Source of the DNA: a bacterium
GTDB lineage: Bacteria; UBP7; UBA6624
Length of the DNA stretch: 15,233 bases
Direction: 5' to 3'
NCBI GenBank assembly: GCA_002716355.1
Contig: PBAU01000015.1
Coordinates: 1-15,233 of the forward strand
Shown here: piece after piece, positions 1 through 14,180 of the stretch
Layout: each line of letters begins with the position of its first letter
Numbering within the stretch: position 1 is the first letter of the stretch
Notes under the pieces: model-generated
What the model was told of the DNA's origin: nothing
Seen by the model: the letters and a program-made list of their open reading frames with translations, nothing else
Database searches by the model: none
Program-made: the position numbers and the translations under genes

Positions 1-56
1 GGTAGTTTGTATTTAAAATCAACTACATTACCTGAATAAAATAACAAGGAGTATTT

Positions 57-872
57 ATGGATCTGGCAACCATAATCGGATTAATTAGTGGAACAGCATT
101 AATTCTATTTTCAATGTTTTTAGAAGCAACAAAAAGCAGTATATCTATGTTGAAATTTTGGAGCCCATCAAGTATTATGATTGTTTTAGGTGGAACATTA
201 GCAGCAACATCAGTTGCTTTTAGATTAAAAGAGGTGGCGCGTGTTATTTCTATTATTAAATATGCATTTATTAAGCCTAAGTTTGTGCTGCATGAATTAG
301 TACAAGCTATTATTGAGTTAGCAGAGGCTAATCGTAAAGGACCTGCAGAATTAGAAAAAGAAATTCCAAACATTAAATATCCATTTTTACAAGATGGAGT
401 GCAATTTATTACTCAAGGAATCAAGCTAGATGAGTTGCGAGAAATTTTAGAAGAAAGAGAAGCTTTTAGATATAAAAGAGAATTACACGAATCTGAACTT
501 ATGAAAACAATGGGAATTTATGCACCAGCATTTGGTATGGTTGGAACTTTAATTGGTTTGGTGATTATGTTGTTTGGTATGGGTGGCAACGATAGTGGCG
601 GCGGAGGCGCAGGAGGCATTGGAAGCATTGGTCCAGCTATGGGTGTTGCATTAATTACAACCTTTTATGGGGCTATTTTAGCTAATTTAATTTTTAATCC
701 TTTTGCAGAAAAAATTAAATCTCGTAATAAAGAAAACGTACAAGCTTTTAAAATTATTATTGAAGGTGTTTGCATGCTACATCAAAAGAAACATTACTTT
801 GATGTAAAAGATAAATTAACTTCTTATATCCCAACCGAAGACCGTTTAAAATATTTTAAAGATGATGAATAA
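57..872 (+). CDS. motA: Flagellar-type stator channel protein, MotA/PomA family (271 aa)
   Basis: AAGGAG Shine-Dalgarno at 46-51, 5 nt before the ATG. Four-TM layout with a large cytoplasmic loop between TM2 and TM3. TM3/TM4 signature PAFGMVGTLIGL...IGPAMGVALITTFYGAILANLIFNPFAEKI closely matches my recollection of PomA/MotA (conserved Pro in TM3, NPF in TM4). The cytoplasmic loop keeps a basic pair followed by acidic residues (ANRKGPAELEKE). Size is typical of flagellar stators, not ZorA. Confidence 0.9.
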   Translation: MDLATIIGLISGTALILFSMFLEATKSSISMLKFWSPSSIMIVLGGTLAATSVAFRLKEVARVISIIKYAFIKPKFVLHELVQAIIELAEANRKGPAELEKEIPNIKYPFLQDGVQFITQGIKLDELREILEEREAFRYKRELHESELMKTMGIYAPAFGMVGTLIGLVIMLFGMGGNDSGGGGAGGIGSIGPAMGVALITTFYGAILANLIFNPFAEKIKSRNKENVQAFKIIIEGVCMLHQKKHYFDVKDKLTSYIPTEDRLKYFKDDE

Positions 873-1578
873 ACAAGAATTAGACCAATTTGAAGATGAA
901 ATAAGAGGGAGTATTAAAGAAGAGCAGTCATGGATGATGACATATGCAGACATGATGACACTTTTATTTGCTTTTTTTGTTCTTCTTTTTTCTATGTCAA
1001 CAATAGATCCAGTAAAAATATCCCAACTTATGGATGGAATGGGAGATCAACCAGAATTAAAATCATTTAATGAGATAACCAAAGAGTTTGAAGACATATT
1101 AGAAGAACTAAATATTGAGAATCAAGCAAAAGTTTCTAGGGATCCAAGAGGCGTTACATTAGAAATTGATGGAGATATTTGTTTTGAATCAGCAAGCACT
1201 CAGCTACATGAAACATTAATCCGAGTATTAGATTTAGCCGCAAAGAAAGTATTAAGTCAGGCAGATGATCCAAGACTGATTACTGTAGAGGGGCATACTG
1301 ATGCAGATCAAATTCCAAAGGAATTAAGAAAGTTTTTTCCAACAAATTGGGAATTATCTGCTGCAAGAGCTTCAAAAGTTGTAAATTATTTGATTGATAT
1401 TGGTGTAAATTCTGGTAAATTACAGGCATCTGGATATGCCGATAGATGGCCTGCAAGTTTATCTTGGTATGATGTTCGAAGCGGTAAAGTCAATAATGCT
1501 GTTATTGCAGAAAATAATAAAACCGAGGAACAAAAAAAAATAAATCGCAGAATCAAAATTGTTTTTAGTAAAAATTAA
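862..1578 (+). CDS. motB: Stator anchor protein MotB/PomB family with OmpA-like peptidoglycan-binding domain (238 aa)
   Basis: Overlaps the motA stop by 11 nt (ATGATGAATAA), suggesting translational coupling. Single TM with the invariant ion-binding Asp in YADMMTLLFAFFVLLFSMS (Asp30, nt 949-951). OmpA-like motifs GHTD...NWELSAARA...GYADRWP...NRRIKIVF. Confidence 0.9.
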   Translation: MMNKQELDQFEDEIRGSIKEEQSWMMTYADMMTLLFAFFVLLFSMSTIDPVKISQLMDGMGDQPELKSFNEITKEFEDILEELNIENQAKVSRDPRGVTLEIDGDICFESASTQLHETLIRVLDLAAKKVLSQADDPRLITVEGHTDADQIPKELRKFFPTNWELSAARASKVVNYLIDIGVNSGKLQASGYADRWPASLSWYDVRSGKVNNAVIAENNKTEEQKKINRRIKIVFSKN

Positions 1579-1595
1579 ACTTATTGGGAGAATGA

Positions 1596-2903
1596 ATGAA
1601 CCAAAAATTTAAAACAATTATAAATAAAACATTCTTTGTATGTTTGTTTTTGAGTATTGCTCTAATGCAAAATGCAGAATTAATAACCCAAAAAATTAAT
1701 GTAGAAAATGCTATTAGAGATAAAGTGAATGTAACATTAAATAAATTATTAGATCAATCACAGTATGTAATTATCGTGAATGCAAGAATGGATGTTAAGG
1801 CATTTTCAATGAATGATAATTCTACATCTAGTCAGCAGCAAACTAGAAACTATTATAGTCCTATCCCTGGTTTACTACCAACAGTACCACAGAATATTAA
1901 AAAATCAACAGGAACAACTTATCAGTATTCTTCTGATAAATATTTATTATATGGCTTAGATATTGCAATTTATTTAGACGAATCAACAGCAACAGGTTCA
2001 ATGAAACAAAACATTATTCGTTTAGTAAATGATGCAATTCCAGAATTAGTTGATTGTGAAGATTGTATACGATTTGAAACTATGAGCATGAATAACTCAA
2101 CCAGTTCAAGCTATCAAGATTTATTAAATAGAATTGAAACATTAGAACAAGAAAGAAGAGATGCCGAAGCTCAATTGATTAATTGGAAGTTTGACCAATT
2201 AGAAAGTCAGTTACTTATTGCGCAACAAAGAGAAAGATCTCGAGAAATTGCAGATTCGGCGAGATTGGCTAATTTACAAAAAATTGAATTAGAATATAGA
2301 AAAAAACAAGATTCTTTATATGTTTTAACATCAATCAATTTAAATGAAGCAATTAAAGGAAGAATTCAATCTGAATCAGATTTAAATGATAAATTAATTG
2401 ATATTATTAAAAGCGGTATGGACTCCAATGCAGATAGCGATATTATTGGAGGAGGTACTGATTCAGATATTGATAGGTCTAAATCAAATAATGCAGGATT
2501 ATTAATGTGGATTGGCTTTGCAGTTATTGTCTTGTTATTAGGTACATTAATATTAATGGTTATGAAAAATAAACAGCCAGTTTATTTAAAGCCTAAAAAT
2601 TCAAATAAACAGCCCGAATCTTCTGGTTCAGAATCTAATCAAAAACAAAATTTTGATGCCACTCAATCAACAGTTGTACCACCAACTCAAACTACAAGTT
2701 CTGATTCTTTAGATTTAACAGCAACTAGCGCAAATGAAGATGGAGATGTGATGAGATCAGAATTAAAGTCTTTACGTCAATCTGCTGTAGCAATGAGCGT
2801 AAGTCAGAAAGATGGAGCAAATCAAATTGTAAAAGATTGGTTAGATAGTTCTAATGAAGATGGAAATAGTTCAGATGAACAATCTGATGATAAGAAGAGT
2901 TAA
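1596..2903 (+). CDS. Two-TM membrane protein, candidate shortened/divergent FliF (MS-ring)-like protein (435 aa)
   Basis: GGGAG RBS upstream of the ATG. N-terminal hydrophobic segment (FFVCLFLSIALM). About 280 aa predicted periplasmic region with helix-strand-strand stretches resembling YscJ/FliF ring-building motifs (VENAIRDKVNVTLNKLLDQSQYVIIVNARMDV; LYGLDIAIYLDES...KQNIIRLVNDAIPELVDCEDCIRFETM). Heptad-like coiled-coil stretch (about residues 170-260). Second TM LLMWIGFAVIVLLLGTLILMVM (nt 2499-2564). About 110-aa Ser/Thr/Asp-rich cytoplasmic tail ending in an amphipathic segment with Trp (ANQIVKDWLDSSNED), like the FliG-binding C-terminus of FliF. Lies immediately upstream of fliG, as fliF normally does. 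The CDS is confident; the family assignment is tentative. Confidence 0.45.
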   Translation: MNQKFKTIINKTFFVCLFLSIALMQNAELITQKINVENAIRDKVNVTLNKLLDQSQYVIIVNARMDVKAFSMNDNSTSSQQQTRNYYSPIPGLLPTVPQNIKKSTGTTYQYSSDKYLLYGLDIAIYLDESTATGSMKQNIIRLVNDAIPELVDCEDCIRFETMSMNNSTSSSYQDLLNRIETLEQERRDAEAQLINWKFDQLESQLLIAQQRERSREIADSARLANLQKIELEYRKKQDSLYVLTSINLNEAIKGRIQSESDLNDKLIDIIKSGMDSNADSDIIGGGTDSDIDRSKSNNAGLLMWIGFAVIVLLLGTLILMVMKNKQPVYLKPKNSNKQPESSGSESNQKQNFDATQSTVVPPTQTTSSDSLDLTATSANEDGDVMRSELKSLRQSAVAMSVSQKDGANQIVKDWLDSSNEDGNSSDEQSDDKKS

Positions 2904-2929
2904 TATATTATAAGGATAAAATAATTATT

Positions 2930-3865
2930 ATGGGAAATGATTTAATAGATACTTTAGCAGGATTAGATAAATCAGCAATTTTATTTCAAGTTTTAGGTGA
3001 GTCTTTAGCCTTAACTATGTTTCAAAGTTTATCTGAGAGCGAAGTTTTAAAAATTAGAGTACGCTCTAAAGAGTTGAAAAATATTCCTTTTGATATTAAG
3101 CAGGCAGTTCTTGAAGAATTTTATTTCAAGATGATGACTCAAAAATATAGACAAGTAAGCAAGTCAAATAAGCTGTTTTCTTTTTTAGATGAATTAAATG
3201 ATGAACAAATATTTTATTTAACTAATACTGAATCTGCAAAAGTTATAGCCCTAACTCTTGATCAGCTATCAGAAGAAAGAAAAATAAAAATTCTTAATCG
3301 TTTTAATGCAAGCATTAAACATAATATTATTATTGAATTTGCCCAACTAAATGAAATTCCCCTAGAAGGTGTTGTGAATATTGCGCATGAATTAAAAAAG
3401 AAAATATCTTTTATACCCGGACCAAAGGAATTTAGTAGAGGAGGAGCACAAAGTATTGCTGCTTTACTGAATCAAATGAGCATTGAAGAATCAGAACAAT
3501 ATTTAAGCCAAATTGAACAAGATGATCCAGAACTTTATTCTAAAGTAAAAAAATACTTTTTATCTTTTGAGGATTTGTTAGATATGCCTGATCATTTAAT
3601 GCAAATATTTTGGAAAAATCCTGATGCAACAGATGTAGATACATTAGCTCAAGCATTAAAAGGCTTTGATCAAGACGTTGTTGATAGGATATTGTCATAT
3701 TTGCCTACAAGAAAACAAAAAATGTATACACCTATCACAACACCATTATCAAAGCGAGATGCAGAAGGCGCACAACAATCTATTATGAAAGTCGCAAAAG
3801 AAATGTCTAAAAACAAAGAATTAAACCTTGATGATATTTTATCAGAAACAGAAATGATAGATTAG
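2930..3865 (+). CDS. fliG: Flagellar motor switch/rotor protein FliG family, all three domains present (311 aa)
   Basis: Collinear similarity to remembered FliG sequences. N domain: LAGLDKSAILFQVLGESLALTMFQSLSESEV...VLEEFY. Middle domain: NTESAKVIALTL in place of the EHPQ-TIAL motif. GGAQSIAALLNQM and DDPELYSKVKKYFLSFEDL match the GG linker and MFxF-EDL motif. C domain: LAQALKGF...TRKQ...RDAEGAQQSIMKV. Length is typical for FliG. Confidence 0.85.
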   Translation: MGNDLIDTLAGLDKSAILFQVLGESLALTMFQSLSESEVLKIRVRSKELKNIPFDIKQAVLEEFYFKMMTQKYRQVSKSNKLFSFLDELNDEQIFYLTNTESAKVIALTLDQLSEERKIKILNRFNASIKHNIIIEFAQLNEIPLEGVVNIAHELKKKISFIPGPKEFSRGGAQSIAALLNQMSIEESEQYLSQIEQDDPELYSKVKKYFLSFEDLLDMPDHLMQIFWKNPDATDVDTLAQALKGFDQDVVDRILSYLPTRKQKMYTPITTPLSKRDAEGAQQSIMKVAKEMSKNKELNLDDILSETEMID

Positions 3866-3893
3866 AATTGAATTTAAAAATAAGTTTTCATAT

Positions 3894-3926
3894 AAAAAAA
3901 ACCTCTTTTATGAAGAGGTTTTTTTA
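3894..3926. terminator. Bidirectional rho-independent terminator shared by the convergent fliG and dockerin-protein genes
   Basis: Stem CCTCTT (3902-3907) pairs with AAGAGG (3913-3918) around loop TTATG. An A8 run (3894-3901) and a T7 run (3919-3925) extend the stem and give a U-tract on either strand. Located 29 nt after the fliG stop and 32 nt after the stop of the minus-strand gene. Confidence 0.8.
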
Positions 3927-3957
3927 TATCCAATAAATTATATAATAATTTTATTAA

Positions 3958-5478
3958 TTATCCTAAAATCATATTAATCATGGCAACGACATCTAAAACA
4001 TTTATAACACCATCTTCATTTAAATCTGAGCAAGCATTATAATTATCTTCACAGTCAGCACACAGTATAATATTAATTGTTAGAACGACATCTAGAACAT
4101 TTAATACTCCATCTGCATTTGCATCCCCATATAATTGACCACATTCATCGCCAGATCCACCAAGATCTAAGTCTAGGGTTACAAATTGTCCACTACCATC
4201 GCTAAATATAAATTCGGCAGCATTACCACCACCAATTGTTGCGCTAAATGTTACACCTTCTTCATATGCATGTCCATCAGGCGTCATAATAAAAACCATA
4301 TCTTCTACCATAACTTCATGAGCTGTTGCTAAATTATTTTCAGCATCTGTATATAAAACAGAAACTATACCTGTTTCAGTATCATATGTTGGGTTTGTAA
4401 GAGAGGGTAAAGAGTTGTCATTTTGCGATTGAGTAGACATAACCAATACCCCAAGATCTGACGTATCTAAAATATTAGTTGAAATATCTAAACCACTAAG
4501 GCCCGCCTCAACTGTAGTACCAACTAAAGCAACCCCATTTAAGGAATTAGGCCAAACTCCCCAATCAGCATCATTAGTAATAATTGATAGTAAAGATGAA
4601 GCTTGAAAATTATTACCAGCAGTTGAATAACTAAAATTCTCACTTAAAACCTCAAATCCTCCAACTTCTCCTGTTGTTAAATCACCATCAATTTTATAAA
4701 TTGCAGGATAAAGCTGACCAAAACCGCCATCACCCCAAGCATATGCATAGGCAACAGGGTTTTCAGCCTCTGGATTTACTATTGCAATAGAATATAAATT
4801 CCATGGTCCAAAAAAAGACCCAGAATCACAGCAAGATCCAGATAATCCTAATGAAGCAAATAATTTATCATCACTATATGTTGCTTTTATATTAACTATA
4901 TCTTGGCTAGCACTAGTTTCTCCAGATTCATCAGTTACTAATGTAGTATATAAATTATTTGCTGGAGGCCATTGGTTATTTTCATTATATGGAGATTGTG
5001 AAACGGTAATTTGACCAAAATCAAGCCCAAGGGAGTTAGAATCAATAGAACCTTGTAAGTACCAATCAACATTATCGCCACCATTTGTTGTAGTTGTTGC
5101 GCCCCATGTACTTTCATATCCCTCTTCATTTATAGGATTTACATTTGAATTTTCTATCCAGCTTTGTTGATTATCAGTAGAAACAAAAACACTTGCAGAT
5201 GTACTTTCAGCTTGTATTAGCGAATCTGATAAATCTGCATGAGTTGTAAAGTTAACTGCTGGAGCTGAAGAACATAAATTTTCTAATAATTCTTCTCTAA
5301 CATTTGGCATAACTTGGTTAACTGCATTTTTTGCAACCATTGCTCGCTCCCAAATAAGTTGAGCGGCTTCCTTATGAATTTGTTCCCATTGTTGAGCAGT
5401 GGGCTGTTGATAATTATTATTAAAACCCAGCGAGCTTAAAATCCATAAAAAACTAAAAATTTTCATACATGTATACAT
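3958..5478 (-). CDS. Secreted protein of unknown function with C-terminal tandem dockerin-type (EF-hand-like Ca-binding) repeats (506 aa)
   Basis: GAGGT RBS 7 nt upstream of the ATG at 5478. Signal-peptide-like N-terminus (MKIFSFLWILSSLGF). C-terminus has two copies of a D-x-N-x-D-G-V-[LI]-N-V-L-D-V-V motif (GDANADGVLNVLDVVLTINIIL and SDLNEDGVINVLDVVAMINMILG; nt 3961-4128), matching the type I dockerin duplicated-segment pattern. I do not recognise the remaining ~440 aa (Gly/Ser/Thr/Asn-rich, probably beta-rich). Confidence 0.8.
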   Translation of the reverse strand: MYTCMKIFSFLWILSSLGFNNNYQQPTAQQWEQIHKEAAQLIWERAMVAKNAVNQVMPNVREELLENLCSSAPAVNFTTHADLSDSLIQAESTSASVFVSTDNQQSWIENSNVNPINEEGYESTWGATTTTNGGDNVDWYLQGSIDSNSLGLDFGQITVSQSPYNENNQWPPANNLYTTLVTDESGETSASQDIVNIKATYSDDKLFASLGLSGSCCDSGSFFGPWNLYSIAIVNPEAENPVAYAYAWGDGGFGQLYPAIYKIDGDLTTGEVGGFEVLSENFSYSTAGNNFQASSLLSIITNDADWGVWPNSLNGVALVGTTVEAGLSGLDISTNILDTSDLGVLVMSTQSQNDNSLPSLTNPTYDTETGIVSVLYTDAENNLATAHEVMVEDMVFIMTPDGHAYEEGVTFSATIGGGNAAEFIFSDGSGQFVTLDLDLGGSGDECGQLYGDANADGVLNVLDVVLTINIILCADCEDNYNACSDLNEDGVINVLDVVAMINMILG

Positions 5479-5562: not shown

Positions 5563-8223
5563 TTAAGCAATTTGAGCTAAAGTTAGATATGCAATTGGCA
5601 CTCTAAATGGAGAACAGCTTACATAATGAACGCCAGCATTATATAAAAACTTAATTGATTCTGGATCACCGCCATGCTCTCCACATATTCCAAGTTTAAT
5701 TTTTTTATTAGAAGATTTTGACTTTTTAATAGCAATTTTAATTAATTCACCAACACCTTCAGCATCTAAAACTTGGAAAGGATCTTGTTTAATAATTTTT
5801 TGACTAATATATTCAGGCATAAATGTACCAATATCATCTCTAGAAAAACCAAAAGTGGTTTGAGTTAAATCATTGGTTCCAAAAGAAATAAAATCTGCCA
5901 ATTTAGCAATTTTATCTGCGATTAAACATGCACGAGGCAATTCAATCATAGTACCAATTTTAATATTCAATTTTTGTAATGAGTATTGATTAATAATATT
6001 CGTGATTAAATTTTTTTGTTGTATAAATTCTCCTATACTCCCAACTAAAGGAATCATAATTTCAGGGTGTGGCTTGAAGCCCTCTTTAAGTAATTGTTTC
6101 GCGGCTTGTACTATTGCCGTTGTTTGCATTTGAGTGATTTCTGGATATGTAATAGCTAGTCTACATCCACGATGTCCAAGCATTGGATTTGATTCATGTA
6201 AGGTATGTATCTTAGCATGTAGCTGTTTATAGCTAATATTGAAATCATTAGCTAAATCCTGAATTTGTGATTTTGTTGTAGGCAAAAATTCATGCAGAGG
6301 CGGATCTAATAATCTAATAGTAACAGGCTTACCATTCATTGTTTTTAAAATATTATAAAAATCATTTTTTTGAAAGGGTAATAATTTCATTATGGCTTTT
6401 TTTCTATCTTCCAAAGAATTGGCTATAATCATTTTTCTAATTTCTTTAATTCTCTGAGGATCAAAAAACATATGTTCTGTACGGCATAAACCAATTCCTG
6501 TTGCTCCAAGTTCATATGCTTTTTTTGCATCTTGAGGAGAATCAGCATTAGTACGCACATTAATTTTTGCTTCGGATTTACTAATGGACAATAAATTATT
6601 AAATAGCTTATTTTTAGATATTTGTGGTTGAATTAAAGGCAACTGTCCATTATATACATGACCGGTTGTTCCATTTAATGTTATCCAGTCACCTTCTTTA
6701 ATTATCCTATTACCTACCTTAAATAATTTATTTTTTTCATTAATTTCAATATCATTACAGCCTACAATACAGCATTTACCCCATCCTCTTGCAACTAATG
6801 CTGCATGGGAAGTCATTCCACCGCGCGATGTAAGAATTGCTTTTGCGGCATACATGCCATGCACATCCTCAGGGGAGGTTTCTTTTCTTACTAAAATCAC
6901 ATTTTTACCTTCATTATATAATTGCTCAGCTGTATTAGGATGAAACACGATTTCTCCAGTAGCTGAACCAGGTCCAGCCGGTAGGCCTGATGCAATAGGA
7001 TTCATATTGTTTATTTCTTGCGGATTAATAGTTGGTAAAAGTATTTCATTAATATGTGAAGGAGAAATTTTAGCTAATAATTGTTTTTTTGAATGTAGTT
7101 TTTCTTTATACATATCTAATGCTATTTTAATTGCAGCGGTACCATTTCTTTTACCTGTTCTAGTTTGCAGTAGCCACAGTTTTCCTTCTTCAATAGTAAA
7201 TTCTAAATCTTGCATTTCTTTATAATGCAATTCCAAGTTCTTTTGAATTTCATCTAATTCTTTATATAGTTTTGGAAATTGAGATTTAAGATCATGTTTT
7301 GAATTATCAATAATTGGCAAAGGAGTTCGAATACCAGCAACAACATCTTCTCCTTGAGCATTTTTTAGCCATTCTCCAAAAAATTTTTTTTCTCCCGTAG
7401 AAGGATTTCTAGTAAATGCAACACCTGTAGCTGATGTATTTCCCATATTACCAAAAACCATACATTGAACATTTACGGCCGTACCCCAATCATCTGGGAT
7501 ATTTTCTATTTTTCTATAATCAATAGCTCGTTTCCCATTCCATGATTGAAAAACTGCATTAATAGCACCCCATAACTGCTCATAAGGATCCTGAGGAAAA
7601 TTTTGCTTAAACTTACTCTTAATTTTTTTTTGATATAAATTACATAAATTAATTAGTTGAGAGTCTGTTAAATCACTATCCCTTTTATAGCTATATTGAT
7701 ATTTTAACTTTTCTAATAAGAGATCTAATTCTTCTCTAATGCTATCATTGGTTGTTGAATAAAGAGGATTTGATTTTTCCATAACTACATCAGCATACAT
7801 CATTAATAATCTTCTATATGAATCATAAACAAATTGAGCATTATCAGTTTTTTGAACAAGACCGCGCAGAGTATCATCATTTAGTCCAATGTTAAGTACA
7901 GTTTCCATCATACCAGGCATTGATTGACGAGCTCCAGAGCGCACAGAAAACAATAAAGGATTTTTATGACATCCAAATTTTTTATTCATATATTGTTCAA
8001 TTTTTAGTATTGCAGAATTAAGCTGTTTTTTAAATCCAGATGGAAATTTTTTATGTTTCATATAAAAAGTACAAACCTCCGTACTGATAGTAAAGCCTGG
8101 AGGCACAGGAATTCCTAAATTTGTCATTTCAGCTAAATTTGCACCCTTCCCTCCTAATGTATGATTCATTAATGCAGAGCCTTCTGCGCTTCCATTTATA
8201 AATGTATAGATATATTTTTTCAT
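5563..8223 (-). CDS. ppdK: Pyruvate, phosphate dikinase (886 aa)
   Basis: Full-length collinear PPDK. N-terminal ATP-grasp region (GGKGANLAEM, PVPPGFTIST). Phosphohistidine swivel motif GGMTSHAALVARGWGK. C-terminal PEP/pyruvate TIM-barrel motifs (GLCRTEHMF, FISFGTNDLTQ, GICGEHGGDP). Confidence 0.97.
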   Translation of the reverse strand: MKKYIYTFINGSAEGSALMNHTLGGKGANLAEMTNLGIPVPPGFTISTEVCTFYMKHKKFPSGFKKQLNSAILKIEQYMNKKFGCHKNPLLFSVRSGARQSMPGMMETVLNIGLNDDTLRGLVQKTDNAQFVYDSYRRLLMMYADVVMEKSNPLYSTTNDSIREELDLLLEKLKYQYSYKRDSDLTDSQLINLCNLYQKKIKSKFKQNFPQDPYEQLWGAINAVFQSWNGKRAIDYRKIENIPDDWGTAVNVQCMVFGNMGNTSATGVAFTRNPSTGEKKFFGEWLKNAQGEDVVAGIRTPLPIIDNSKHDLKSQFPKLYKELDEIQKNLELHYKEMQDLEFTIEEGKLWLLQTRTGKRNGTAAIKIALDMYKEKLHSKKQLLAKISPSHINEILLPTINPQEINNMNPIASGLPAGPGSATGEIVFHPNTAEQLYNEGKNVILVRKETSPEDVHGMYAAKAILTSRGGMTSHAALVARGWGKCCIVGCNDIEINEKNKLFKVGNRIIKEGDWITLNGTTGHVYNGQLPLIQPQISKNKLFNNLLSISKSEAKINVRTNADSPQDAKKAYELGATGIGLCRTEHMFFDPQRIKEIRKMIIANSLEDRKKAIMKLLPFQKNDFYNILKTMNGKPVTIRLLDPPLHEFLPTTKSQIQDLANDFNISYKQLHAKIHTLHESNPMLGHRGCRLAITYPEITQMQTTAIVQAAKQLLKEGFKPHPEIMIPLVGSIGEFIQQKNLITNIINQYSLQKLNIKIGTMIELPRACLIADKIAKLADFISFGTNDLTQTTFGFSRDDIGTFMPEYISQKIIKQDPFQVLDAEGVGELIKIAIKKSKSSNKKIKLGICGEHGGDPESIKFLYNAGVHYVSCSPFRVPIAYLTLAQIA

Positions 8224-8802: not shown

Positions 8803-9471
8803 ATGATGCAATTTTTATTTTCTTCTATAGGTAAAAAAATTCAGGTTGCTATCTCAGGTATTTTTTTATGTATTTTTTTAGTTTTTCATTTACTGAATAA
8901 TATCACATTGTTTTTTGGTCCAGCTGTATTTAATGCTATGGTTCATTTTTTAGAGAGTATTAAACCAATGATTAGAATTATGGAATTTGGTTTGTTATTT
9001 ATTCTCATCATGCATATAGGCAATGCTATAAAATTAACAATAGAAAATAAAGCTGCAAATCCTGTTAATTATAAACAATCACAATCTAACGATGTGAGCT
9101 CTTTAAATTCTCGGACTATGCTAATATCAGGCACTATAATCTTATTGTTTATTATTTTACATCTCAGCTATATATGGCTTAGCTATCAAACACACAATCC
9201 TAATAATCATAGTGAAACTTATTATGATATTTTGTTAAGAAACAAAATTGGGTTTTTAGGGCACAAATGGACGGCTTTATTTTATGTAATTGCCATTAGT
9301 ATTATTGCATTTCATTTACGCCATGGTTTTCAATCTGCATTAAAAACTTTGGGTTTTCTTCCTAATTCAAAAAATAATTTTTTATATAAAATTGCCTTTA
9401 TTTTTTGGGGAATAATACCTTTTGGTTTTATTGTTATTGTTTTATCAATTCAATTTGGAATTATTAATTAA
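8803..9471 (+). CDS. sdhC: Succinate dehydrogenase/fumarate reductase cytochrome b subunit (b558-type, five TM helices) (222 aa)
   Basis: N-terminal [13 protein letters not shown] motif typical of Bacillus/Bacteroides-type SdhC/FrdC. Five hydrophobic helices with conserved His in FHLLNN, MHIGNA, LHLSYIW and FHLRHGF, consistent with bis-His ligation of two haems. Directly precedes sdhA and sdhB. Confidence 0.85.
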
Positions 9472-9472
9472 T

Positions 9473-11383
9473 ATGAAATCACTGGATTCTAAAATACCCA
9501 ATGGAGATTTAGTTAGTAAATGGTCTCAGCACAAATTTAATTTAAATTTAGTTAATCCATCGAATAAAAAAAAATATACAGTGATTGTAGTTGGGACTGG
9601 TTTAGCTGGTGCATCCGCAGCTGCAACAATGGCAGAATTAGGATATAATGTTTTAGCTTTTTCATATCATGAATCACCGCGTAGAGCTCATAGCATTGCA
9701 GCACAAGGTGGAATTAATGCTGCTAAAAATTATCAAAATGATGGAGATAGTGTTTTTAGATTATTTTATGATACTATTAAAGGAGGCGATTATCGATCAA
9801 GGGAAGCCAATGTTTATCGTTTAGCAGAATTAAGTAGCAATATTATTGATCAATGTGCAGCACAGGGAGTTCCATTTGCTCGTGAATATGGAGGACACTT
9901 AGCAAATCGTTCATTTGGCGGAGCGCAAGTTTCTCGTACATTTTATGCTAGAGGACAAACAGGACAACAGCTACTTTTAGGAGCATATTCTGCCTTAATT
10001 AGGCAAATGAATTTAAAAACAGTCAAATTTTTTCCTAGACATGAAATGTTAGATTTGGTTACCATTGATGGGCATGCAAAAGGAATTATCGCAAGAAATT
10101 TATTAACGGGAGACATACAATCCTATCCAGCAAATGCAGTTGTATTAGCAACAGGAGGGTATGGAAATGTTTTTTACTTATCTACAAATGCGATGGCAAG
10201 CAATGTAACAGCTTCATGGCGTGCACATAAAAAAGGAGCATTATTTGCTAATCCTTGCTTTACACAAATTCATCCAACCTGCATACCTGTGAGTAGTAAT
10301 CATCAATCTAAATTAACATTAATGAGTGAAAGCTTAAGAAATGATGGGCGTGTATGGGTGCCAAAGAAAAAAAATGATTTAAGAGATCCCAATCAAATAT
10401 CAGAAGAAGAAAGAGATTATTATTTAGAACGACTTTATCCTTCTTTTGGGAATTTAGTCCCTAGAGATGTTGCATCTAGGAGAGCAAAAGAAATGTGTGA
10501 TAACGGCTTTGGTGTTGGCAATACAAGGTTAGCTGTATATCTAGACTTTAAAGATGTTATCGCCAAACAAGGTAAAAACTGGGTTGCTGAAAAATATGGT
10601 AATCTTTTTGATATGTATCATCAAATCACTGGAGAAAGTCCCTATGAAAAACCCATGATGATATATCCGGCAGTACACTATACTATGGGAGGATTATGGG
10701 TTGATTATAATTTAATGAGTAATATTCCAGGATTATATGTAACAGGTGAAGCAAATTTTTCAGATCATGGAGCAAATAGATTAGGAGCCAGTGCATTAAT
10801 GCAAGGTTTAGCTGATGGATATTTTATTTTGCCTTATACTATAGGAGATTATTTAGCTAAAGAATCATCAGCTTTAAATAGCACACATGAAGAGTATCAA
10901 AATGGAGTGCAATTTTGTAATGAACAAATTAAAAATATGCTTTCTATTAAAGGTAATAAAACTGTTGATGATTTACATAAAGAATTAGGAAAGATTATGT
11001 GGGATTATGTAGGCATGTCTAGAAATAAAAGCAATTTAGAGTTAGCCTTGAAACAGATTCCATCTATTAGAGAAGATTTTTGGAATAATGTTAATATTCC
11101 TGGAACTGGCAAAGAATTTAACCCAGAATTAGAAAAAGCAGGTCGCTTAGCAGATTTTATTGAGCTAGGGGAATTAATGGCAAAAGATGCGCTAAATAGA
11201 GAAGAATCGTGTGGCGGCCATTTTAGAGAAGAACATCAAACAGATGACAATGAAGCAAAAAGAAACGACGAAAATTATTCGTTTGTAGCTGCATGGGAAT
11301 ATGTTAAAGAAAAAGAATCAATTATGCATAAGGAACAATTAATATTTGAAAATGTAAAACTGGCAACCAGGAGCTATAAATAA
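9473..11383 (+). CDS. sdhA: Succinate dehydrogenase/fumarate reductase flavoprotein subunit (636 aa from the ATG at 9473)
   Basis: FAD dinucleotide fold [21 protein letters not shown]. Covalent-FAD histidine motif [15 protein letters not shown]. Active-site region [10 protein letters not shown] and [19 protein letters not shown] prefer the ATG at 9473 (MKSLDSKIP..., 1 nt after the sdhC stop) to the TTG at 9422 in the ORF track, which would overlap sdhC by 50 nt. Confidence 0.95.
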
Positions 11384-12122: not shown

Positions 12123-12746
12123 TTATTGTAGTTTAAAAGAAACAGGAATATTAACCCAAACACCAATTCTCTTTCCCTGTTGTTTTGCAGGAATCCATCT
12201 AGATTTTTGAACAGCCTGTAATGCCATTTTATCTAAAGATTCAAATACTCCTTTAACCAGATAGCAATTTTTTGGTATTCCCTTTTTATTTATAAAAGCA
12301 GCAATAATAACCCTTCCTTCAATTCCTGCTTCTTTTGCTAGTTCAGGATATTCTACAAAGTCTTCCACTTTAAAACCAGGATATGGTTGAGGTTCAACCT
12401 CTCTTGCAATATATTCAAATTGCATGTTATTATTACCTGAGGGTGCTTCCCATTCATCAAAATCTTCTAAATCAGTGTCTTCAATTGTGATATCTTCATC
12501 AAAAAACTCATCTTCTGAAGCTACTGGAATTGAGGGGCGAGGCGGTGGCTCTGGTAATTTAATTTGTTCAGTTTGCGGAATATCAAATGTTTCAATTTCT
12601 TCTTGAATTGTTTTTTCAAATTTTTGAGCTTCACCAAGAAATCTTGGGAAAATATAAAAAATGATGGCAATTCCCATAATTACTCCTAGTGTAACTTCTC
12701 TAATACGTACAGGATAATGGTCTAATAGTGGATCTATTCTCATCAT
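12123..12746 (-). CDS. tonB: TonB-family energy transducer (207 aa)
   Basis: N-terminal TM anchor (VTLGVIMGIAIIFYIF), Pro-rich spacer (LPEPPPRPSIP), acidic linker, and C-terminal TonB domain (YPELAKEAGIEGRVIIAAFINKKG...ALQAVQKSRWIPAKQQGKRIGVWVNIPVSFKL). Starts 4 nt after the upstream exbD stop. Confidence 0.85.
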   Translation of the reverse strand: MMRIDPLLDHYPVRIREVTLGVIMGIAIIFYIFPRFLGEAQKFEKTIQEEIETFDIPQTEQIKLPEPPPRPSIPVASEDEFFDEDITIEDTDLEDFDEWEAPSGNNNMQFEYIAREVEPQPYPGFKVEDFVEYPELAKEAGIEGRVIIAAFINKKGIPKNCYLVKGVFESLDKMALQAVQKSRWIPAKQQGKRIGVWVNIPVSFKLQ

Positions 12747-12750
12747 AATT

Positions 12751-13161
12751 TTATTTTGATTGTGTTAAAGCTGAATAATTTAATTTTAAAGCCTGAGCCT
12801 GCCTAAGTTGAGTATGTATATCAGTTAATGTTTCCATAATACTGTTTTCATCAGACTTTAAGGAAACTGTTAATTTAGGATCTTTGGTAATTTTTAAATA
12901 CATTACTTCTCCTAAATCATTAATATTAATAATTTGATCATCTACTGATATCAACCCATCTTTAGTTGCCCATATATATGAAGTATGTCTTTTGCTTTCT
13001 AATTTTTCTATTGTTTGAGCTCTAGGCAATACGACTTCTAATCCTTCAAACTCACGCATTACAGTAGTAACCATAAAAAATATTAATAGCATGAAAATTA
13101 TATCAGGAAGAGATGATGTAGAAATTTCGTTACTTGTTTTATTTTTTCTATTTAATTTCAT
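12751..13161 (-). CDS. exbD: Biopolymer transport protein ExbD/TolR family, second copy (136 aa)
   Basis: Signature N-terminal segment SSLPDIIFMLLIFFMVTT with the conserved TM Asp, followed by a small periplasmic domain. Operon position between exbD-1 and tonB. Confidence 0.88.
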   Translation of the reverse strand: MKLNRKNKTSNEISTSSLPDIIFMLLIFFMVTTVMREFEGLEVVLPRAQTIEKLESKRHTSYIWATKDGLISVDDQIININDLGEVMYLKITKDPKLTVSLKSDENSIMETLTDIHTQLRQAQALKLNYSALTQSK

Positions 13162-13167
13162 ATTTTA

Positions 13168-13569
13168 TCAATTAGGTGGATTTGCAATAGAAATTTTTGT
13201 TGCTCCAGCTTGCTTCAATTGGTCTAATACTTCGATATAGCTTTTATATTTTGTACGCTTATTAGTTAACACAGAAAAAATTACTTTTTTATTTGCTTTA
13301 ATTCTATCAATTGCCTTTCTTTTTATATCTTTAATTTGTGTTGGCTGATCATCTAATAATACTTTTCCACGGTCATTAATCAAAACATTCACAATATTAT
13401 TTTTATTAACCTCTAGTTCATTCCCTTCAGCAGGAAGAATTAAGCTTATTCCTTTATCAAGTGAAATTGTAGTTGTTACAAGAAAAAAGACTAATAACAA
13501 AAATGCTATATCAGACATTGAAGAAGAATTGACTTCTTGCATTGCGGCTCTTCTAGGTTTTGTGAGCAT
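13168..13569 (-). CDS. exbD: Biopolymer transport protein ExbD/TolR family, first copy (133 aa)
   Basis: SSMSDIAFLLLVFFLVTTT signature with the conserved Asp. TAATG stop/start overlap with exbB. Confidence 0.88.
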   Translation of the reverse strand: MLTKPRRAAMQEVNSSSMSDIAFLLLVFFLVTTTISLDKGISLILPAEGNELEVNKNNIVNVLINDRGKVLLDDQPTQIKDIKRKAIDRIKANKKVIFSVLTNKRTKYKSYIEVLDQLKQAGATKISIANPPN

Positions 13570-14180
13570 TATTTTTTCTTTGTATCTGCTATGCTTTGTA
13601 GTAACATAGATGTACTTTTTTGCATAGTAACAATTTGATTATCTATAATATACATAACAGCATTTTGTAATAGTTGAAGAATTACTGCTACTACTAGTCC
13701 AAAAGCCGTAGTTAATAATGCTACTGAAATACCACCCGCTACTACTGCAGGAGAGATATCATTGGCCATTTTAATATCATTAAATGCTTGAATCATTCCC
13801 CACACAGTTCCCAAAAATCCTAACATAGGCGCCGTTGCTATACATAATGATATCCATGTCATATTTTTTTCTAATGATGCCATTTCAATTGCACCAGATT
13901 GTTCTAAAGATTTTTCAGCCGCCTCTTCTCCTAAATGAGCACGGTCCAATGCATTGTAACATAAATTAGCGACAGGTCCAACTGCTCCATCACATTTATC
14001 TTTGGCCGCACTTACTCCAGAATCTTTAATAGTTTGAGCAATATCTTCAGCAAAATCTTCTTTTGTCGCCAATCCTTTTAATAGATGGTATAATCTTTCA
14101 CCAACAAATACAAAACCAATTATAAAAATAAATAATATTGGCCACATAAATCCGCCACCATCAATAAATAATTGTACCAT
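13569..14180 (-). CDS. exbB: MotA/TolQ/ExbB-family proton channel, ExbB (203 aa)
   Basis: AGGAGA RBS (complement of 14187-14192) 6 nt from the ATG. GGFMWPILFIFIIGFVFVGERL N-terminal helix. Conserved APMLGFLGTVWGMI...GISVALLTTAFGLVVAV TM2/TM3 motifs. Heads the exbB-exbD-exbD-tonB operon. Confidence 0.9.
   Translation of the reverse strand: MVQLFIDGGGFMWPILFIFIIGFVFVGERLYHLLKGLATKEDFAEDIAQTIKDSGVSAAKDKCDGAVGPVANLCYNALDRAHLGEEAAEKSLEQSGAIEMASLEKNMTWISLCIATAPMLGFLGTVWGMIQAFNDIKMANDISPAVVAGGISVALLTTAFGLVVAVILQLLQNAVMYIIDNQIVTMQKSTSMLLQSIADTKKK

Follow-up and report, generated by a model that had tools for sequence, protein, structure and literature searches.

What does a compact set of flagellar stator and rotor genes do when the genes for the rest of a flagellum are not found beside it? 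This question is raised by the window analysed here, an entire NCBI contig (PBAU01000015.1) of 15,233 nucleotides (nt) from a metagenome-assembled genome (MAG), in which four genes follow one another on the forward strand: motA (57..872), motB (862..1578), a gene for a protein of 435 residues that we call gene 3 (1596..2903), and fliG (2930..3865). In the source record all four, locus tags CL659_06125-06140, are annotated as 'hypothetical protein', and in the full-text literature we found no description of the operon to which they belong. An original prediction, made from the DNA alone, had suggested that they are a module that derives from the flagellar motor and may serve something other than a canonical flagellum. 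This idea is supported by the reduced FliF encoded by gene 3, by the loss of the EHPQR motif from FliG and by a published survey in which Marinisomatota MAGs have fliG but neither fliM nor fliN. With a probability of about 0.6, we regard the locus as part of a phylum-wide machine that would derive from the flagellar motor and work without a flagellum. Gene content, homologies, the pattern of motif losses and retentions, synteny, and flanks free of flagellar genes are shown directly.

The operon in the window and in its relatives

The list of open reading frames (ORFs) confirms the packing given in the original prediction to the nucleotide, with an 11-nt overlap between motA and motB, a gap of 17 nt between motB and gene 3 and one of 26 nt between gene 3 and fliG. 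The prediction had further described the four genes as self-contained, encoding exactly these parts and nothing else, and here it has to be revised, as at least two more conserved genes lie upstream, the last 12 codons of one of them being present in the window. These codons and their stop occupy positions 1..39 of the forward strand and read, in frame 1, GSLYLKSTTLPE, resembling the C-termini of the TPR proteins of relatives, which run ...KLPE or ...ILPE up to the stop codon. Positions 1-39 thus encode the C-terminus of a secreted TPR protein, whose gene is cut by the contig end. The 17 nt that separate it from motA include an AAGGAG ribosome-binding site. Since the TPR gene lies 3-23 nt 5' of motA in 20 of 20 related loci, and the corresponding distance in the window is 17 nt, motA is not the first gene. 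An exact-protein look-up with the MotA of the window returned no longer contig.

For comparison, about 20 related loci were collected by looking up encoding contigs, by scanning GTDB species genomes and by mapping synteny with tblastn. Those that carry names are Neomarinimicrobiota MAGs, except for one labelled Gammaproteobacteria that has the identical synteny. This entry (L012, NZNP01000075.1), titled 'Gammaproteobacteria bacterium', combines the Marinimicrobia gene order with a GC content of 36% and probably stems from a misclassified or contaminated MAG. Wherever the loci reach far enough, the order is nadA-nadC-nadB, panC-panB-panD on the opposite strand, the genes for a lipoprotein and the TPR protein, motA, motB, gene 3 and fliG, followed by a convergent gene for a dockerin protein and the gene for pyruvate phosphate dikinase (PPDK), then SpoVG and sdhCAB. 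A contig of 1.63 Mb has one of these loci in its middle. In intact loci the gene junctions range from -35 to +61 nt, most of them falling between -11 and +24 nt. This order is kept even though the gene-3 products of the relatives are only 30-61% identical to that of the window, which is more than chance.

The TPR protein of the relatives, about 445-460 residues long, has a signal peptide, an invariant RVAFSRPG motif, a beta-rich N-terminal part and C-terminal TPRs; Pfam recognizes the repeats and, weakly, OMP_b-brl_2 in the beta-rich region. The gene preceding it encodes a protein of about 300 residues, which should be a lipoprotein because its signal peptide ends in a conserved Cys; in a distant locus its counterpart is a CarboxypepD_reg beta-sandwich protein. 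In one locus (L003, gene at 6174-7127) the mature N-terminus of the lipoprotein carries a Cys/Lys-rich low-complexity stretch, CQQACKTEECNTKKCKKKCKKSCKKKACKK, which is absent from more distant homologues. Taken together, the operon comprises at least six genes, encoding the lipoprotein, the TPR protein, MotA, MotB, the short FliF and FliG, and the window carries the 3' two-thirds of this conserved Marinimicrobia (SAR406) operon.

The simplest explanation for the missing flagellar genes, offered as the mundane alternative in the original prediction, was that the rest of a normal flagellar cluster lies upstream of the contig end. This explanation fails in each relative with readable flanks: the 10 kb upstream hold no flagellar gene, and the lipoprotein, TPR, pan and nad genes are found there instead. 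Likewise, no flagellar gene occurs in the flanks of at least 12 related loci, including the one on the 1.63-Mb contig, which contain pan, nad, PPDK and sdh genes, and none for the export gate, rod, hook or filament lies within the stretches of about 20 kb that were read around the operon in relatives.

The stator

The product of motA is a stator subunit of the flagellar type. It matches Pfam MotA_ExbB (E = 9e-22), its best NCBIfam models are MotP, PomA and MotA, and its best matches in the PDB are MotA of Clostridium sporogenes (1e-36) and PomA (5e-33). It has four transmembrane (TM) segments (residues 1-25, 39-57, 152-178 and 191-213) and a large cytoplasmic loop, and the family keeps a basic pair, [RK]K, and a Glu that align with R88, K89 and E96 of PomA, as well as PAFGM in TM3 and TTFYG in TM4. 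The periplasmic loop between TM3 and TM4 (about 174-190) contains a Gly-rich insertion, GMGGNDSGGGGAGGIGS, whose length varies among relatives; C. sporogenes MotA and PomA have a shorter loop here.

MotB consists of one TM helix, a plug and an OmpA-like peptidoglycan-binding domain (Pfam MotB_plug, 3.9e-18; OmpA, 2e-14). Its channel Asp, located in TYADMMTLLFAFF (TYADMMTLL), is invariant across the family, and the peptidoglycan motif TNWELSAARA is conserved in all family members. Channel Asp, plug and peptidoglycan-binding domain, as expected of a canonical flagellum, are thus all present, and from its sequence the stator looks fully competent. The two genes do not encode a channel of the ExbB/TolQ/GldL type with an ExbD/TolR/GldM partner, given that the first is best matched by MotA, PomA and MotP and the second possesses the MotB plug.

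Gene 3, a putative FliF reduced to its RBM3/collar part

In FliF, the inner M-ring, in which the type III export gate is housed, consists of RBM1 and RBM2, the S-ring consists of RBM3 and the collar, and the C-terminal helix binds the N-terminal domain of FliG, FliG_N. Gene 3 had been described as a shortened 'FliF-like' gene; this proved right and can be sharpened, as its product is probably a true but reduced FliF homologue that retains the RBM3/collar part alone. Hydropathy places TM1 at residues ~5-31 and TM2 at ~297-326. The AlphaFold2 model, with a mean predicted local distance difference test score (pLDDT) of 62 overall and above 90 in the long helix, and a predicted template modelling score (pTM) of 0.26, contains an RBM3-like alpha-beta-beta-alpha-beta periplasmic domain (~28-162) with a conserved insertion loop (67-114), a helix of about 100 residues (173-274), TM2, a variable disordered linker and a C-terminal helix (383-418). 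When this model was compared with the PDB using Foldseek, 10 of the 11 best matches were FliF structures of the S-ring or RBM3/collar, among them 8z5v, 7d84, 7bk0, 6sd1, 6scn and 8z4d, with E-values of 1.7e-3 to 2e-2, probabilities of 0.99-1.0 and 150-165 aligned columns.

Among the 215 close homologues of gene 3 there is none in which Pfam finds a reliable domain, and Candidatus Marinimicrobia is the one organism named. When the family profile was run exhaustively with HMMER, 318 relatives were obtained, including longer proteins of 516-613 residues, and some of these (P0350, P0355, P0371, P0403 and P0465) pass the Pfam threshold for YscJ_FliF_C (PF08345), scoring 24-30 bits against a cut-off of 23.8; the matching region directly follows TM1. 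PF08345 matches neither gene 3 itself nor any of the 39 members of the alignment of its short family. The longer proteins occupy the same position in the same cassette, TPR-MotA-MotB-x-FliG, and a comparison of the short family with the longer Marinimicrobia family in hhalign gave a full-length alignment with a probability of 99.8% (E = 5e-29). Searched against the PDB, the profile of the longer family returned FliF, weakly, as its top three matches (E 0.04-0.18). Profile and fold therefore agree on RBM3/collar homology for gene 3. A full-length FliF with both PF01514 and PF08345, as a canonical flagellum would have, was not found: PF01514, which covers RBM1/RBM2, is absent from gene 3 and from the 120 relatives listed for P0403, of which those with names are all Marinimicrobia.

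The C-terminal helix (383-418; ...SAVAMSVSQKDGANQIVKDWL and ...SELKSLRQSAVAMSVSQKDGANQIVKDWL) carries an invariant Trp, sits where the FliG-binding tail of FliF would be expected and is the best-conserved segment between the two FliF-like subfamilies. From this position and conservation we infer that the tail contacts FliG_N; a phmmer search of the PDB with the gene-3 C-tail returned no FliF tail. The periplasmic helix, about 100 residues long in the window, reaches about 200 in the longer relatives.

Two further features of the short FliF are without a known FliF counterpart: a nearly invariant D-C-x-D-C sequence (CxxC) at residues 154-157 of the periplasmic RBM3-like domain, and an invariant YLKPK right after TM2. 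In one gene-3 homologue on a 2-kb ENA contig (P0100), the N-terminal part matches FlaF (PF07309, E 1e-12); this protein probably reflects a chimeric assembly or gene call and was not used.

FliG and its remodelled surfaces

Pfam finds all three FliG domains, FliG_N, FliG_M and FliG_C, in the product of the fourth gene. Its predicted model matches full-length FliG in C-ring structures from cryo-electron microscopy (Foldseek E 5e-9), and at the level of domains it matches FliG_C bound to MotAB (8ucs), FliG_M-FliM complexes, and FliG_N of the FliFc:FliGn complex (5tdy). To follow the motifs, the family was aligned with FliG of Thermotoga maritima and Aquifex aeolicus.

EHPQR is the motif through which FliG binds FliM. 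In every member of the family, EHPQ is replaced by E[SPE]x[KR] (ESAK, ESPK, EPPK, EEIR, ENTR), and its Arg, R160 in T. maritima, by E, Q, D or M, so that the FliM-binding motif of a canonical flagellum is missing throughout. The torque helix, which in Escherichia coli FliG carries the charges R281, D288, D289 and R297, is altered just as consistently. The original prediction had already pointed to an altered helix in the window; in every family member there is a fixed deletion of three residues, the acidic pair is gone and prolines are present, and the model shows a six-residue helix (260-265) followed by a Pro-rich loop. The canonical charge set is thus not there, although a basic residue at the position of E. 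coli R281 is kept. The Gly-Gly linker and the FxxFED motif are retained, and a conserved acidic C-terminal tail, ELNLDDILxxxEMID, has been added. One may speculate that this tail compensates for the acidic pair that was lost. Judging from the alignments, the surface of FliG targeted by the stator appears to be remodelled.

A possible mechanism

The following scheme would accommodate these features. MotA and MotB would assemble into a 5:2-type ion channel anchored to the peptidoglycan, and the short FliF would build a ring in the inner membrane and periplasm from its single RBM3/collar domain, using its conserved cytoplasmic C-terminal helix to recruit the N-terminal domain of FliG. The charged loop of MotA would act on the remodelled C-terminal domain of FliG, such that ion flow would turn, or at least push, the FliF/FliG ring. 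Ring assembly, the joint between the FliF tail and FliG_N, rotation and the nature of the output are what we infer from the individual parts. The output is unlikely to be a rod, hook or filament, because FliF lacks RBM1 and RBM2, which house the export gate, and FliG lacks the FliM-binding motif. Force would instead probably reach the periplasm or the outer membrane via the long periplasmic helix of FliF and the two co-encoded envelope proteins. In its most specific form, the scheme describes a rotary, envelope-spanning nanomachine without a flagellum, in which MotAB turn a ring of FliG and RBM3-only FliF, and the periplasmic helices couple this ring to the TPR protein and the lipoprotein. This form we put forward tentatively, at well below even odds.

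Alternative explanations

Of the other explanations, the one that survives best grants the operon a function and dispenses with rotation. It holds that the MotAB channel and the FliF/FliG scaffold, with the TPR protein and the lipoprotein as partners, transduce force or maintain envelope integrity in the manner of Tol-Pal or TonB, or else sense ion flux or surfaces. In its favour is the torque helix, cut to about six residues and continued by a Pro-rich loop. The Tol-Pal operon includes CpoB and Pal, which the TPR protein and the lipoprotein recall by analogy, and the way in which TolA and TonB span the periplasm offers a further analogy, to the long helix of the short FliF. However, the RBM3/collar is a ring-building module, FliG_N and the FliF tail constitute a known rotor-assembly joint, and MotA has retained the charged residues that face the rotor; moreover, the window already contains a separate ExbB-ExbD-ExbD-TonB set. 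We consider a non-rotary function less likely than our main reading, yet plausible in view of the disrupted torque helix.

It is also conceivable that the cassette is an oddly ordered sub-operon of a real flagellum, containing the only copies of fliF, fliG and motAB, with the other genes elsewhere in the genome. All four proteins do belong to flagellar families, and flagellar protein genes have been stated for Marinimicrobia MAGs (PMC8163782). Yet the FliF of the operon is without RBM1/2, PF01514 being found in none of the relatives listed, its FliG has lost the EHPQR needed for binding FliM, and no related locus has a flagellar gene within 10 kb. As a view on whole genomes, we took in 14 Marinisomatota MAGs from the per-MAG hidden Markov model matches of a published survey (PMC10359470, Supplementary Dataset 3). 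They are 53-93% complete, two of them reaching 93%, and belong to the families Marinisomataceae, UBA1611, S15-B10, TCS55 and D37C17; the MAG of the window is not among them. While fliG was scored in 10 of the 14, fliM, fliNY and cheA/B/R were scored in none, and MAGs of SAR324, Planctomycetota and Nitrospinota in the same table score 1/1/1 (PMC10359470). Together with the 10-kb flanks, the survey argues, indirectly, that genomes bearing the operon lack fliM and fliN. A real flagellum is thus an improbable explanation.

A third possibility is that the ancestor of the Marinimicrobia lost its flagellum and that the genes are a decaying relic of it without present function. Some other groups of the Fibrobacterota-Chlorobiota-Bacteroidota (FCB) superphylum are flagellated, and the reduced gene set, the damaged torque helix and the lost FliM-binding motif could all be seen as signs of decay. 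Against this stand the intact ORFs and the invariance of the MotB Asp, the MotA charges, the C-terminal Trp of FliF and the Gly-Gly linker of FliG in a family whose FliF-like members are down to 30% identical. Intact ORFs are found in hundreds of independent assemblies, with 215 matches for gene 3, 1726 for the longer FliF-like protein (P0403 as query) and 450 for FliG, and conservation is on a par with housekeeping neighbours: between the window and one related locus (L011), FliG is 61% and PPDK 57% identical. Because the ORFs are intact, identities resemble those of housekeeping neighbours and catalytic and interface residues are invariant, the operon appears to be under purifying selection. 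Dead genes should also not persist in genomes this small, the Marinisomatota assemblies measuring 0.6-2.1 Mb and one operon-bearing contig 1.63 Mb. All this renders a relic very improbable. Finally, a Zorya-like anti-phage system or another MotAB-derived defence module, suggested by a weak match of MotB to ZorB (PADLOC, E 4e-18), can be dismissed as hardly credible, since PADLOC gave no ZorA match for MotA and no effector genes (ZorC, ZorD or ZorE-like), the ZorB matches reflect general MotB homology, and the operon, in contrast to a mobile defence island, stays at one chromosomal site throughout the phylum, with core metabolic genes around it.

Several points nonetheless weigh against a flagellar-motor-derived machine that works without a flagellum. 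The case is built from sequences and predicted models. Gene 3 itself has no direct family match in Pfam (at E up to 10), in NCBIfam or in a profile search of the PDB, and its link to FliF is transitive and fold-based, with Foldseek E-values around 1e-3 obtained from a model with a pTM of 0.26. With the torque helix disrupted, the known mechanism by which MotA drives FliG may not apply here. The genome-wide coverage consists of fliM, fliN and the che genes in a third-party table. Lastly, motility has been inferred for Marinimicrobia from 'flagellar proteins' in MAGs, their kinds being unspecified (10.1101/2020.06.03.132969; PMC8163782), a statement that may be compatible with matches to this operon alone.

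Other genes of the window

The window is AT-rich, with a GC content of about 28-35%. Downstream of fliG, folding of the RNA of positions 3866-3957 predicts a bidirectional intrinsic terminator at approximately 3890..3929, a perfect stem AUAUAAAAAAAACCUCUU-UUAUG-AAGAGGUUUUUUUAUAU with an A-run on one side and a U-run on the other. The minimum free energy of -16.3 kcal/mol (z = -3.4) was equalled by 1 of 200 shuffled sequences, which bears out the strong bidirectional hairpin of the original prediction. The hairpin probably terminates both the operon on the fliG side and the convergent gene. A simple consensus terminator scan did not pick it up, because the stem absorbs the T-run.

The convergent gene (3958..5478, reverse strand) encodes a secreted protein of 506 residues whose sole match is a C-terminal dockerin type I domain, the N-terminal ~440 residues being without a family. 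It follows fliG convergently across the clade at 43-74% identity. We considered it as a member of the cassette and rejected this, given that in distant cassettes a beta-eliminating lyase follows fliG in its place and that synteny in the clade extends over the whole region anyway; its earlier description as unrelated to the cassette holds.

Further downstream, Pfam and NCBIfam identify PPDK on the reverse strand, then SpoVG and sdhCAB and, in the downstream part of the window, an S41 peptidase. As listed, the SdhA ORF (9422-11383) has a TTG start and overlaps sdhC by 50 nt; SdhA family models align only from residue 18-54 onward, and the real start is probably located further downstream. At 12123-14180, on the reverse strand, lies a cluster of TonB, ExbD, ExbD and ExbB genes (Pfam TonB_C, ExbD twice, MotA_ExbB), which is syntenic in relatives. 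On the strength of these domains, the window seems to hold a second, independent motor of the 5:2 type, ExbB-ExbD-ExbD-TonB.

Implications

In the operon, the rotor-stator core of the flagellum appears as a separable module on which selection can act; either it was exapted once the flagellum had been lost, or it is akin to a stage that preceded the type III export apparatus. Modular flagellar evolution, long debated, thereby becomes directly testable. If the rotary scheme is true, the machine would be a third kind of rotary envelope machine, beside the flagellum and the motor of type 9 secretion and gliding, and a living example of the flagellar rotor-stator module without the type III export apparatus.

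The uncultured Marinimicrobia (SAR406) rank among the most abundant bacteria of the dark ocean. If their small genomes retain an ion-driven machine, it is likely to be of physiological importance, with surface interaction, envelope function and secretion as examples of where it could act. There is also a practical side: where metagenomic trait surveys take fliG, motA or KEGG 'flagellar assembly' matches as markers of motility, they are liable to score Marinimicrobia wrongly as flagellated. For the study of the flagellar motor itself, an RBM3-only FliF and a FliM-free FliG offer minimal natural constructs with which to examine MS-ring assembly and the coupling of stator and rotor.

Comparison with known systems

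Of the known systems considered, the core of the flagellar motor supplies the closest homologies: a stator of the MotA/PomA type with the MotB Asp, plug and peptidoglycan-binding domain, a FliG with its N, M and C domains and Gly-Gly linker, and a FliF-type protein with two TM helices, RBM3/collar and a C-terminal helix at the position of the tail. The operon departs from it in a FliF without RBM1/RBM2 that has a periplasmic helix of 100-200 residues, in a FliG without EHPQR, whose torque helix is three residues shorter, contains Pro and has no acidic pair, and to which an acidic C-tail has been added, and in its surroundings, which are free of fliM, fliN, export, rod and hook genes and provide a TPR protein and a lipoprotein as partners.

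These partners bring to mind the periplasmic stator scaffolds of elaborate flagellar motors, the TPR proteins PflA and PflB in Campylobacter and MotX, MotY and FlgT in Vibrio. The resemblance is one of concept, a TPR envelope protein accompanying a MotAB-type stator, here encoded directly 5' of motA. Unlike those scaffolds, the TPR protein of the operon has a large beta-rich N-terminal part with a weak match to an outer-membrane beta-barrel, and the operon lacks the context of flagellar disk, P-ring and L-ring.

GldLM of type 9 secretion and gliding, ExbBD-TonB and TolQRA are motors of the 5:2 type that occur in the FCB superphylum. By analogy, the operon may share with them the principle of an ion-driven inner-membrane motor whose work is sent across the periplasm to a partner in the outer membrane. 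Its stator, however, is a four-TM flagellar MotA with a MotB plug, unlike GldL, ExbB and TolQ, and it adds homologues of FliG and FliF, which none of those systems is known to possess. While all component families are known, the combination of an RBM3-only FliF, a FliM-independent FliG, TPR and lipoprotein partners and a flagellum-less context is new, and there is a substantial chance that it represents a new class of machine.

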